This document shows, in pieces, positions 27 to 62,733 of a DNA stretch of 64,000 nucleotides (position 1 is its first letter; each line of letters opens with the position of its first letter). The notes under the pieces were generated by a model. The model had not been told where the DNA came from, did no database searches, and was given only the letters and a program-made list of their open reading frames with translations. Source of the stretch: Amoebophrya sp. A120 (Eukaryota > Protista > Dinoflagellata); contig CAJINV010000002.1 in the NCBI GenBank assembly GCA_905178155.1, positions 2,760,226 through 2,824,225 of the forward strand. Reading direction: 5' to 3'. A program made the position numbers and the translations under genes.

Positions 27-3000
27 ATGCCGCTCCAGCGCCTGCGGAGGCTTGCCTCCCCAGCGATAATGGACAATGGCAATGTCGGTGCGGTTGTTTT
101 AGCATCACAAATTCATGTAACAGTTGAGAATGTAACGTTTGAGAACGCCATAGTCGGCGGTGCGCAGAACATGCAGGGAGGTGGAGCTGCGCCAACCGCC
201 GCTAATGTGACAACAGGAGCGCCTTCCTCTGGAAACAGCGCGAATTACCAGGGTTTCCCGCAGTTCGCATCCGCTGCAAGGAAATCCGAAGCGCCCTCAT
301 CGTCGATTCTGCGGCAAAAAGCAGTCGACTCTACTGCGTCACCGGATGGTGCACGGACGACAAAGGCGCGAAGCCCGAGTGGAAAAAAGAAAGAGAAGGA
401 CGGATCGTCGAAAGCGGACCCGAGCAAGCGCGTTTCCTTTGATGAGTCGAATAACGAGGAATTTTCCCCCGCTTCCTCCGTTTACAACCGAACGAGGAAC
501 GCCCGAGCCGGACGGTTTGGCACCGGGGGAGACATTTTGTCGCCTGAGAAGAATAAACTACAGCAACAGATGAGAGGATCATTTTCTGAAAGCGGTGCTG
601 CTGATGGGGCAGCTTCTAGTACTACAACCGGGACGTCGAATATGGAGAGAAAAAAGTTTGTCACAGTCACTAACTTGCAGGCTTTGCATTACAAATTTTC
701 TCAGCATCACAAACTTTCCTTGTATTGCAGAAACACTAGGGAAATCCCTAATGAAGTTTGGCTGTGATGCATTTTTACGCATGACAAACAATTTTGTATT
801 GCAAAAATGCGCATGAGTGATCGTGACGAACTTTTTTTCTTTGATATCGAACAATCAGCACCTGTTTCACAGCAACCCGTCCAAGATCTCCATTAACGCC
901 AGACGGGTATTATCAAGTGCAAATATCCCTGGATGTCTGGAAAGATGCAAGGTTTGTCGTGCTAGTCCGGCACGGCTCTGAACTTTGTATATTGCGTGGC
1001 CACAAGCAGCCTCTCTTGACTGTCATGCAAAAATAAGGCAGTTTCTCATGCGGAATACGCAGCACAGAAGTTGAAGCACGAAAAAACTTGTCATGCTTGG
1101 CGGCGCTTTACAGTGCGCTTGCTCTTGGCTGACTTGCATCACAACTTCCCAGACCCAGTCATAGTTGCATTTGATAGGTATTGTTTGCGTGGCTGAAAAG
1201 AACGCGACGGCACGCCAGGCGAACGGAAGAGATCGCGCTTGCGCAGAAGAGAATAACCAAACTGGAGCGGAAACAGCAACAATTACGCGAGAAAAACGCC
1301 GGAACTTCTTCTAGTATTACATCGGCTGCGAAGGGAGCAGGAGGTGCTGGGGGACCAGAGGAAAATGAGACTGCCAACTACAAGCCGTCAAAATTTAAGC
1401 CAGCAAAGCGGCGGAAGCTCCTTCGCATCGACCGGTATCTGGATGATTGGGAGGAGTTGGACAGTATCCACTGCAAATATGTATCTATGGGTCTGGAAAC
1501 TTGTGATGCTGAATTGTGGATGACTGAAATACTTCCCCATGCAGCCAAGCATGACAAGTTTGCCGCACACTTTCTCATGCGCAGTCGGCACGAGAAACTG
1601 CGCTTTTGTATGACAAAAGACGGCATCTTTTTGCTAGTCATGCAACACAGATTTTACAGGAATGGAGGACTACCATTACAAGTTCCATGCTTCCAGACCC
1701 AGACATATTTACAGTCGATAGACAGACTCGCCATGGCGGATCCAGTGAAGCTGATCAAGTCGCATTTGGAACGAGTCACGTTATCCTGAGTAAAATTGTC
1801 CCCACATCGGAGTCAAGAAGGGAAATCTGCTACACAAATCAACTCGCTTTGGTTGTTTCGCATGACAAGTCTGCCCTCGTACTGTGATCCTGTTTAGCTT
1901 TAGTTCAGAAGCATCACAGATCTAGCATATCGTGCTGGTTCTAACATCACAACTTCCAAAACACGACTAGAAAATGCTTCTCATGGTGCTCCGCATGAGA
2001 ACCTTTTCTGGCATGCAGATTTCCATGACAGCTCTTGGGTGGGGGCCTTTTTCCTCAAAATACACGTACAAGTTAAATCACGGGGAGGACCCGCGGTTCG
2101 ACTTGCTGGGACACCACGACGCGGCCAAACGGGTGTTGAATGAGCATAACCAGATGGAGTTTTATTCTGTCGACATATCGTACGAAAAAAGTGTTTCACT
2201 GTAAGGATTTTGCAAGTTTTGCATCACAAGTTTGTTCTGCATGACAGAGAAAATTTGCCATGCGAGTTTCCTTAAGGAAAAGACAGCTAGAAATCCATGG
2301 TCTTGCATGTGGAGAAAGACAAATACTTCTCAGATACATTCTCTGCATTACAAGTTTACAGTGAAGCAGTTTTTTCTTGCGATACGACAGTAACCAACAG
2401 GAGTACGCCGAACACCCGCTGGATAAACCTCGCGTGGGGAGCAAGAAGGACGACGACATAATCAACGAGGCGGAGTTGACAAGAAATTTGGCCCGGATCC
2501 GGCGGGAAAAGGAGAAGAGGGCGAATCAGTCTGATTCCGATGTGGAGTCGGACGAAGAATGGATGAAGCGTGTCAACTGTAAAAATGTCTGGGTCTGGAA
2601 GAATGCCAAACTTGGCATGCAGAATTTCCATGCCCCGTGAGGTCTGGAATGCAGGGCCTAGCATGACAGATTCTGCGAAGTGGTCCCTATCGTGCCTGTC
2701 CTGCATGAGAAACTCCTTCTCATGATGGTGGTCAGAAAAGGGCAACTTTTGGCAATCACGCAAGATAGATTTTTGTGTGATCCACAGGACGCATCACAAG
2801 TTGCATCCTTCCAGACCCAGACAATTTTGCAGTTGATAAAGCGGAGGGAGGAACGAAAATTGAAAAGGCAGAAAGATTTGGAAGAGAAAAACAGAACTGG
2901 GCTTGGCGAAGGTACTGACTTAGTACGATTTCGTCTTGCGTGCGCGTGGGCGTGCTGTTCTTGTCTACATGATGCCTTCTGGATCCTTTTGTACAAGTTC

Positions 3001-60036: not shown

Positions 60037-62733
60037 ATGAAAGCTTGCAAGAACATGGTAAATCGCCTCGGTACAACTACTTCTAAAGTGGTTCTTCGAG
60101 CTGGTGTTGGGGTCGTCGTAATTCTCTTCCATTTGTTGGCCCCCGGTGAAGATCACCTGCTCTTCACTCCGGTCTCCGCTCTGAATCCCTACTGCCCGAC
60201 CTGCGCGCCCTACAACCTCGTGTGGATTGTAGATTACGATGGTACGGGGAAAAAGACGAATGGCACCGCGTGGGTCGACACACGGTTGGACGCAGACAAT
60301 GCCCCCGGCTTATCAAATGCAAAGATGTCTGGGTCTGGAACCTTGTAATGCTGAGCCGTGAATAGTAATTTCTCTGTAATGCACAGCCAAGCATGAGAAA
60401 TATTCGCGCGGCTTAGAAGTGTTGTGCCTTCCGCATGACAAACTGCGTTTGTTCCGTGACAAGTCAGAGGGTCATCTCTTCTTGGACACGCATCACAAAC
60501 TCTTCAGTCATGCCAGACAAGCATGACAAACCTTGCATCCTTCCTGACCCAGAGAAACATATTTGCAATCCATACGGCTTGGGAGATCCCGACATCGACC
60601 CGGAGGAAGCCATATGCAATGCAAAAGCATCGTACTAGTATAAATTGCATTACAAATTTTCTCAGCATGAGAAATAAAATTTGTAATGCGGATTTACCTT
60701 AAGCAAAGGAAAAGTAATGCATATTTGCAATGACTACGAGTGCGATACTTTTGCAGTTCATAAGCCACCCGGTTGTTAAGCGACGAGTGCGTGAAAAGCG
60801 GGTGTCACGCGGTGATGCGGTGGTTGCACCCAGGCGGGGTTTCTTACCATGCGAGGGAACACATGTGGTGGAAGACTGAAGACCCCAACTGGGGAGGCCC
60901 GAAAGAGAGGCTCTATCCCATTTATTCCACGGATGAGACTTGGTTGAACGACTTCGCCCCACCGGGATGGAACACAGGTCTTGAGGACAAGTGGGACAAA
61001 ACCATCGCTCCAGCTATAAAAGAACAAGCGACGAGTGCTTCTAGCACAACTAGTAGCAACAAGAAAACCATCCTCTCGCTTCGCTGCAAGGCCCGGCCCT
61101 GCCTGCTGCGCCACCGAGGGAAAGGGTGGCGGGAGTACTCCGAGACGGGGTTGTGTGGGGAAGAAGGCGAAAAGAAACAGGGGTTCCTGGCGAAACATGC
61201 TGATTGGGGCGGGGATTGCCGTGCGAACGCCTGCTGTAGTGTGAAAAATATAGACACAAACTGGTGGAATCGATTGTATAAAAACGCGTATGAGTGTGAG
61301 GAAAGCAATGGCTCGAATACCGAAGGCTCAAACAGACACCAATTACGTCGCGTGTCGGAAACAGAGTATGTGTCCTCCGACAAGATTACCCAGATCGCCA
61401 CACTATCCACCGCGACATTATATATTGATCTGGGTCTTCCTCTTCACTGGAAAAGTGCAGAAGTTTAGTGTCATGCGGATATTTTTTGTATGGCTGTGGC
61501 CTGCAGCTCCACCTGTAGCTAGGGTACTAGTGCCGTAGCGTCAAAGTCTGGAATGTATTGCAGGGTTGTAGTACGACCTTAGCGTCACAGACACCTTCTG
61601 TGAAAGCTTTGTTGCATTGTGTCCAACGACTGCTCTGCATGAAGAGAAAATGTAATCCGCTCTAGTAAGGGTAAGTAGTAGTTGCCAACGAAAACGAACC
61701 AGCGTGTTGCTATTCGTGCATGACAGATTTTGTTGTAAAGGGCCGGGTGGACGACCATCACAAGATTCCATCCTTATTCCAGACCTGGATCGATATTTGC
61801 ACTGCATACGCCAAAACCTCAACACTTACCCGCGAGGCCGACGTCGAGCTTTCGTCGCCGCGTCGGGCGCCCCCGACAAATTCTGGAAGAAGCGACAACC
61901 GGGAGGAACCGACGGAAGAAAACGACGGAGATGCCTTGCAAGGGGGGAGTGCAGATGGATCATCTTCCGACCTAAAGCAGGACAGCACGAATCCTGCGCA
62001 GTACCGCGACGGCGACCTCGAAAGCGCAGAGACGAGCCGGGACCTCGAGTCCTGCAGTTGCGAGGAGGAAGAGGTAGCGGTGGCAGATGTTGGCACTGTT
62101 CCTGCTTTTTTGGAAACACAAACATCTTCAAAACTACCGCAAATTTCCTCGTCTTCGGCCGGGACGAGTGTAGGTGGACAAGATCATGAGGATCATGTCA
62201 TGGAAGATGAACTTGATCATGTCGTAGTTCCTGCTAGTACTAGAAGAGAACATGGGGCTGACGCCTCATCTACCCCTGGTCGTCCTGCCGGAAACGAAAA
62301 GATCCTCGAAGGGAGCAACAAACGGGCATCCTCGCGAAAAAATTCGTCCTGCCCACCTTGTCGTGGAAGTTTTGCCGAGATTAATGGTACACCACGTCCT
62401 CGCGGTGAAATTCCAGAGCAGCTGCAGTCGGAGTTGCCGAAGAGTGTAGTTGACTTTACGCAGCTTCACGAGGTCGACGTGGACCAAGAAAGAAGAGCGG
62501 ACGGAGATGATGGTGCTGGTGTTGCATCAAAGATGAACGACCCCGACGAGACCGATTCATCTTTGTTTCTCGACGTAGAAGATGACCAGCAAGAGCAGGA
62601 GCTGCACCAGCACTTCAGCAAAGGAACAACAACTTCCGCGGCGCTCCCTGTAGTGGATGATCCAAACAACCACGACAATGCTTCCGAAGCTGGTCAGGAA
62701 GCAGGTGCTGCAGCTTCAACAGTGATGGTTTAG
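60037..62733 (+). CDS. Putative secreted/surface Cys/Trp-rich protein with acidic tail; 3 IR elements
   Basis: Hydrophobic N-terminal segment then YCPTCAP; frame restored across 60311, 60613, 61404 elements. Confidence 0.6.
60311..60574. mobile_element. IR introner family A
   Basis: DR CGGCT/CGGCT. Confidence 0.88.
60613..60762. mobile_element. IR introner family B
   Basis: DR AGCCA/AGCCA. Confidence 0.9.
61404..61808. mobile_element. IR introner, long degenerate family-A-like
   Basis: Decayed TCTGGGTCT/TCCAGACC ends; DR CGCCA at 61396-61400 is separated from TAT by 3 extra bases, second copy at 61809-61813. Confidence 0.65.

Follow-up and report, generated by a model that had tools for sequence, protein, structure and literature searches.

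The window analysed here, a 64,000-nucleotide stretch of the genome of the dinoflagellate Amoebophrya sp. A120 (contig CAJINV010000002.1, positions 2,760,226 to 2,824,225), carries many short intron-like elements with inverted ends, in whose interiors a nine-base word recurs on both strands. Comparison of these elements with relatives from metagenome contigs makes it moderately likely that the copies of the word are putative double-stranded-DNA sites of one protein shared by the mobilising machinery of all element families. The core of the word is under selection and its same-strand copies follow a firm spacing rule of 31-33 bp; full helical phasing of the sites is probable.

Elements were located without use of the motif, by ends of the form TAT...ATA, by inverted repeats and by a target duplication of 5 bp. 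A duplicated stretch of the window (the copy at 17421-27210, elements included) was counted once, and a candidate at 61277-61422 without motif, with a low score and with no family was dropped, leaving 52 intact elements of 145-331 nt in 9 families. The strict motif, TTGTNATGC, has 150 matches on both strands of the window against 2.76 ± 1.82 expected from 100 dinucleotide shuffles, none of which reached 150, and this disposes of the possibility that the word is no commoner than background. The duplicated copy accounts for 26 of the matches. Among the other 124, 113 lie inside the 52 intact elements (12,028 bp, 9.39 per kb), 51 of which hold at least one; eight lie in six decayed or truncated elements, two of these in the truncated twin of the element at 27009; one lies in the seven GT-AG introns of the window; and two lie in the remaining 39,527 bp of exon and intergenic DNA, a chance level of 0.05 per kb. 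The motif is therefore as rare outside elements as the sequence-only reading had supposed, and its density in elements is about 190-fold higher than in other window DNA. The copies quoted in that reading are all present: at 686, 704 and 779 in the element at 641, at 9592, 9623 and 9716 in that at 9561, at 40035 and 40130 in that at 40003 (with a further reverse copy at 40082), at 41210, 41290 and 41375 in that at 41176, at 8765 in that at 8660 (with a further copy at 8696) and at 52970 in that at 52833. The nine-letter word is real in its strict form, but the true motif is wider, GCA[TA]NA[CG]A[AG] (GCA-W-N-A-S-A-R), with a free base that is seldom A. Below, an R site is the GCATNACAA form on the + strand and an F site the TTGTNATGC form. 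Because window elements served to train the weight matrix, matrix densities inside them are circular; the strict-motif counts are not.

Metagenome contigs scanned with the end word of the largest family, F0, yielded 148 loci. They contain 339 further elements, found by termini and target duplication alone and 71-95% identical to window copies, and the strict word is present in 314 and the wider word in 337 of the 339. Motif matches in these loci number 703 within elements (83,449 bp) and 261 outside, 229 of the latter in family-profile hits. The 391 elements group into 13 families of at least two members and 12 single-member clusters, which were excluded from family statistics. All 13 family consensus sequences contain the motif, as had been claimed for every family; the claim of copies on both strands holds less widely, as strong sites are confined to one strand in the F3, F9 and F12 consensus. 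The families had also been described as having unrelated terminal inverted repeats (TIRs). Their ends do differ by family, but 25 of the 26 family ends begin with TAT, and an A stands at end position 13 in 24 and at position 14 in 23 of the 26. A perfect 5-bp target duplication flanks 287 of 382 profile-defined full-length copies, and a 6-bp duplication none of them. In all families the five bases after TAT (element positions 4-8) vary (22% from consensus), in contrast to their conserved neighbours on both sides; a copy's two ends often differ there, and the same variants reappear in different families.

In the eight largest families the motif core diverges from the consensus by 5.6% (9,492 positions), compared with 32.1% at the free base, 27.3% in the spacers and 8.2% at end positions 9-28. 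Spacing is constrained too: a same-strand pair 30-33 bp apart occurs in 12 of 13 family consensuses, where 2,000 random placements gave a mean of 2.67 and a maximum of 7. Counted per copy, 197 pairs are 31, 90 are 32 and 58 are 33 bp apart; a further peak at 39 bp (96 pairs) is family-specific. A model that places all sites on one helix face at 10.5 bp gives a mean cosine of 0.50 over 120 pairs (null 0.036 ± 0.061), and still 0.43 once the 30-33-bp pairs are removed (null 0.077 ± 0.083); 0 of 300 null runs reach the observed value in either case. The best-fitting period is 10.45 bp, a value also obtained from three sets of seven less related families picked by hand, and 11.0 bp yields only 0.06. 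Variants of the distance from the end to the first site recur 9 or 11 bases apart, roughly a single helix turn, with F0 copies starting at position 40 (64 copies) or 31 (43 copies) and F4 copies at 53 (11 copies) or 42 (4 copies).

The way in which changes build up with divergence points indirectly to selection during spread. Nearest pairs were chosen on half of the spacer columns and their divergence was measured on the other spacer columns; over four bins the core differs by 5.1, 5.6, 5.6 and 4.8% as spacers go from 9.9 through 16.0 and 17.3 to 18.1%. A constant floor of this kind is expected where core changes are removed from lineages that go on spreading but accumulate in copies that have landed, and its level is near that at which the target duplications themselves are mismatched (140 of 1,910 positions, 7.3%). 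Core changes thus seem to be purged during spread and not after insertion. No element pairs with homologous flanks were found among the elements examined.

A mechanism consistent with these patterns can be outlined. Monomers of a transposase DNA-binding domain, or of an accessory protein, would align on one face of B-DNA with the 10.45-bp period and would help a complex to assemble on the common TAT...A-rich ends. Spread would favour copies whose sites are intact and in phase, and the sites would decay after a copy has landed. What would matter for splicing is the TAT terminus together with the inverted ends, not the motif, and the common word may supply microhomology for the exchange of interior modules between families.

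Several observations weigh against sites for one mobilising protein. Families F3, F5 and F11 score about 0 at 10.45 bp, a 16-bp period suits adjacent pairs equally well (0.64 vs 0.63), and in 200 bootstraps over families a period of 10-11 bp came out best in only 66%. The spacings are not independent, since the families share ancestry, and the orientation of sites relative to the ends varies. Core differences climb to 8.6 and 10.4% in the two most distant bins, and redundancy of sites could hide host selection. Host selection could likewise yield the excess of sites in GT-AG introns, 6 in 1,769 bp against 0.36 expected (in this count the start of one intron was placed 2 bases off). Predicted RNA folds pair motif bases at 0.64-0.81 and spacers at 0.55-0.64. 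Furthermore, Pfam searches of 133 of the 147 locus frames of at least 230 aa (the 14 shortest were left out) gave no transposase or integrase domain, and the text of PMC7789003 reports that no transposase was found in strain A120.

The wider search for the protein was in keeping with this: neither the 148 loci nor the window contained an autonomous element. Where long ends paired and a 5-bp duplication was present, the cause was a foreign insert in an element or a chance pairing, with no coding frame recognisable by inspection. In a viral collection the F1 end word and a three-site pattern each gave 0 hits, and the three hits of the F0 end word were chance matches without element structure, as was L039; the three-site pattern also had 0 hits in prokaryote genomes. 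The best lead to the protein is the integrase-like frame in an Amoebophrya introner family, namely A120 introner family 38, which is described in PMC12130899, in the portion consulted, as having a frame like a long terminal repeat (LTR) integrase and inverted ends. An enzyme of this integrase type would be compatible with the 5-bp duplication seen here; two terminal words of window elements are absent from supplement 3 of that paper.

Among the alternatives, one that we consider unlikely is that the phased sites are bound by a host DNA-binding or chromatin protein which marks the template for co-transcriptional recognition of the unusual intron, and that families converge on the word or retain it because the host dies of unspliced insertions. 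It would suit all of the double-stranded-DNA features, including phase and absence of strand bias, as well as the lack of any known transposase for the elements, and the text of PMC7789003 reports that U1 snRNA is missing. Decayed elements and GT-AG introns retain surplus sites. However, core changes on terminal branches accrue at about the rate of target-duplication mismatch, and five of the nine listed GT-AG introns are site-free. Two elements known from DNA alone, in loci L074 and L019, carry 700-800 foreign bases with at most one strong site, near one end.

The excess of sites in GT-AG introns is most simply explained by decayed elements. Sites are retained in the introns at 33566-33712, 33962-34150 and 55263-55483. 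The first of these, on the + strand of a WD40 gene with boundaries inferred from the reading frame, has sites at 33606, 33656 and 33703; its terminal AG falls within the last site and it matches the F0 profile (E 1.3e-4), so it is likely to be a decayed element. This suggests that elements turn into canonical introns.

It is less probable still that the motif is only inherited from an ancestral element built of a repeat of about 32 bases, with the spacing as a fossil. With sites masked and shuffled spacers as the null, z exceeds 4 in 7 and 3 in 17 of the 78 pairwise family alignments, most strongly in F7-F10 (z 13.5), F5-F10 (8.1), F4-F6 (7.3) and F3-F5 (7.0), and the aligning families have different ends; the motif is therefore at least partly inherited. 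Some of these alignments depend on a few bases next to a site. A 16/32 lattice also suits F1, F3, F5 and F7, and weak sites complete it in F0 and F2. Nevertheless, the core is kept about five times better than the surrounding sequence, with one free position within it, which shows that the motif is not merely inherited. The 22-24-nt spacers of 19 same-strand pairs are constant in length and mostly dissimilar by eye, and F0 has no masked link above z 3.0. The possibility raised at the outset, that the families are collinear homologues carrying the word by descent, was thus half borne out. The families are mosaics of common interior modules with differing ends.

Inserts within elements may be relevant to how such mosaics arise. 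In L050:3862-4492, L074:6012-6983, L049:571-1051, L072:3305-3808, L095:7-330 and L036:7148-7478 the junction duplications, of about 6-19 bases, begin in or span a motif copy; further, mostly short inserts in the same list lie away from sites. The motif may act as a hotspot of breakage or template switching and in this way give rise to mosaic families. Another insert-bearing element, the F6-like L019:505-1608 (1,104 nt), has an 800-nt GC-rich repetitive insert between near-perfect ends and a perfect 5-bp duplication.

A third alternative is that the word acts in RNA as a splicing-factor site, a branch site (UNAY occurs in both strand forms) or a guide-RNA target; the removal of elements in RNA-like contigs speaks for it. 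In silico removal of an element together with one target duplication restores long + strand frames, for example 873 codons across 9 elements. Eleven of 15 listed contig joints skip exactly an element and 5 bases, in both orientations of F0 and F1, and the remaining four are GT-AG introns. The contigs come from four runs of one sample and are RNA by guess. In run X5, which bears on excision at the DNA level, contigs extend from exons into elements and joints are swamped by repeats, and the raw-read runs X9 and X10 give very little coverage of the stretch. The borders of removed copies have no fixed dinucleotides, and this, like the GT-AG intron ending inside a site, speaks for an RNA role. Where target duplications are mismatched (elements 48445, 48745, 54328 and 55813; 48440-56079), they place the cut behind the third or fourth base of the left copy, and a cut after base 4 gives an intron start N-TAT, resembling the G-TAT start of eight of the nine listed GT-AG introns. 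This suggests that TAT is recognised in splicing at positions +2 to +4, whatever the first base.

We nonetheless consider action of the word in RNA very improbable. Sense-strand sites are evenly divided (112 R vs 125 F, p=0.44). Four window copies have strong sites of a single form on the sense strand, R in those at 1782, 5773 and 47198 and F in that at 41176, and all four lie in frames restored by removal. In F3 all six strong sites are on one strand, and elements of this family are oriented in reading frames 9 one way and 8 the other. (For F9 the occurrence of both orientations depends on a single R-sense copy with a 300-nt open frame, and this family was not counted as evidence.) Moreover, 10.45 bp is the period of DNA, and a middle base that is free to vary is more in keeping with a protein than with a guide. 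An Rfam scan of the window found no family.

The least probable alternative, that opposite copies pair as internal stems which fold the intron and join its ends, draws on predicted motif-to-motif pairing of 0.25-0.55 in 12 of 13 families, above that of spacers, and on some excess of free-base match in two opposite-strand F0 pairs (0.26 vs 0.16 and 0.55 vs 0.40 by chance), but motif copies pair in predicted folds because complementary words must, pairing is 0.05 in F3, and the inverted ends already pair at 0.80-0.93. Covariation, one of the checks to which the stems lend themselves, was close to chance in opposite-strand pairs: the symmetric outer F0 pair matches at 0.33, below the 0.43 expected, and others are about as expected. 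A same-strand pair shows a larger excess (0.74 vs 0.44), so ancestry explains the match in the opposite pairs. Since there is neither a sense-strand bias nor consistent compensation at the free base, we favour a double-stranded-DNA binder over RNA stems, over a guide RNA and over a splicing factor specific to one strand. The sequence-only reading had offered a common trans factor or a set of internal stems. Core conservation (5.6% vs 27.3%) and the fixed spacing, with 12 of 13 families against 2.67 expected, support the former; among the options it named, a transposase-type DNA binder fits best, and internal stems, a guide RNA or a strand-specific splicing protein fit worse.

The intact elements of the window are distributed among families as follows. 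The F0 copies lie at 911-1176, 3512-3773 and 6480-6733 (1 R + 4 F sites each), 1465-1720 and 2571-2838 (3 R + 2 F), 6934-7196, 16796-17071 and 40302-40568 (2 R + 3 F), 7298-7559 (3 R + 1 F), 8110-8363 (1 R + 5 F), 13647-13908 and 39272-39539 (3 R + 3 F), 15415-15677, 36820-37084 and 60311-60574 (4 R + 2 F; in the last, 60490 and 60521 are 31 apart), 41996-42250 (4 R + 1 F) and 47198-47449 (5 R + 0 F, sense strand), as well as at 54328-54592 and, in the opposite orientation, 55813-56074. The inverted ends of the element at 13647 are perfect over 34 nt. Family F1 is represented at 4744-4913, 6271-6433 and 48185-48335 (1 R + 2 F), 8459-8608 (2 R + 2 F, the F sites 31 apart), 8660-8815 and 44522-44678 (2 R + 2 F), 60613-60762 (2 R + 1 F), 48445-48590, 49533-49682, 50707-50863, 54117-54268 and 56322-56471, and in the opposite orientation at 48745-48889 and 50447-50623. 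F2 copies occupy 2176-2384 (3 R + 1 F), 7609-7817 (1 R + 4 F), 8875-9111 (1 R + 2 F) and 9561-9769 (1 R + 4 F; 9592 and 9623 are 31 apart).

Family F3 is found at 1782-2062 (3 R + 0 F, sense strand), 5773-6058 (4 R + 0 F, sense strand), 41176-41467 (0 R + 7 F, sense strand) and 27009-27287 (1 R + 5 F), the last being the complete version of a gap-cut copy at 17118-17320. F4 elements lie at 40624-40945 and 52833-53153 (2 R + 4 F each) and at 41534-41864, which lacks the strict motif and has wider sites only (1 R + 3 F). F5 elements lie at 9247-9476 (2 R + 3 F), 15055-15275 (2 R + 1 F), 38570-38798 (1 R + 3 F), 40003-40218 (1 R + 2 F) and 53228-53446. Families F8, F10 and F11 have one each, at 641-846 (3 R + 3 F), 3967-4231 (3 R + 1 F) and 37146-37453 (4 R + 3 F; 37371 and 37402 are 31 apart). 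The elements excised with 5 further bases in the RNA-like contigs are those starting at 48445, 48745, 49533, 50447, 50707, 52833, 53228, 54117, 54328, 55813 and 56322. Decayed elements are present at 3236-3477 (F5, with strong sites kept at 3267, 3315 and 3414), 7832-8067 (F2, sites 7900 and 7978), 10170-10346 (F1) and 61430-61808 (F0, expanded, with one strong wider site at 61717). About 7.5-17.3 kb of the window recurs exactly 9,891 nt downstream, in tandem and across a 100-N gap (window 7530-27210), and this exact repeat is probably an assembly artefact.

Among the host genes, Pfam matches identify a CCCH zinc-finger protein (16134-16814), a WD40 protein (32723-34648) and a citrate-transporter-family protein (54475-58325); 28 of the 33 window frames have no Pfam match. 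Most of the long frames that run across elements are on the + strand. In the loci, elements lie unevenly with respect to the host frame: the two orientations number 14 and 3 in F2, and 43 and 29 in F0.

With their TAT ends, direct repeat, removal without GT-AG borders and many families, the elements match the published introners of Amoebophrya. The introners, as the text of PMC7789003 describes them, are likewise non-canonical introns of about 240 nt in many families, with inverted ends that have a TAT start and an A run, short direct repeats and no internal transposase. Their direct repeats are given as 3-5 nt, whereas here the duplication is strictly 5 bp and the element is removed with one copy of it; the same text doubts a general mobilisation of introners by transposase. 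The internal shared motif, the spacing rule and the mosaic interiors are not described in the text examined of that paper and of its supplement, figures S19-S25 aside, nor is the internal motif in the text and supplement text examined of PMC12130899. A literature search returned no paper joining Amoebophrya, transposable elements and subterminal, and broader searches, judged by title or the opening of the abstract, were also blank. The kind of element is known, then, and its internal code apparently undescribed.

Subterminal repeats of transposons offer a parallel. Cooperative binding of a transposase to the subterminal repeats of a miniature inverted-repeat transposable element (MITE) is established for Emigrant and Lemi1 in the portion of PMC1636448 consulted, and these repeats, like those of hAT, CACTA and Sleeping Beauty cited there, are short words in mixed orientation in non-autonomous elements. 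The Emigrant repeats copy half of the terminal repeat, whereas the word here lies outside the ends and, unlike the repeats of Emigrant, fills the whole interior at 31-33-bp spacing, in introns with family-specific ends. IS3EU and GingerRoot elements share the TA...TA termini and terminal inverted repeats, as far as described in PMC10045372 and PMC6839031, but they make 6-bp duplications and GingerRoot has inverted repeats of 100-150 bp, compared with 5 bp and about 25-35 bp here. Membership in these groups fails on the duplication length, given 6-bp duplications in 0 and 5-bp duplications in 287 of the 382 copies. The non-conventional introns of euglenids and the MITE-derived introns of Fritillaria resemble the present elements in being transposon-like, with inverted ends and non-GT-AG borders; no internal phased word is described for them in the consulted text of PMC11282704, and the Fritillaria introns have preferred border dinucleotides, unlike the elements here.

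Two questions are posed as open in the text of PMC7789003: by what means introners spread when no transposase is recognised, and how their splicing proceeds with neither fixed borders nor a detected U1. A single answer to both, which we put forward with little confidence, would be that one DNA-binding protein reads the phased code, licenses mobilisation and, left bound, guides the U1-less spliceosome, so that any DNA with TAT ends and phased sites could yield scarless, orientation-free introns. A defined 9-base word with a spacing rule provides a bait for pull-down and a handle toward the autonomous partner, and the motif gives a simple classifier of these introns for gene annotation. As for the introners themselves, the word suggests that a single machine serves the many families described so far, and that these come about through the swapping of modules.

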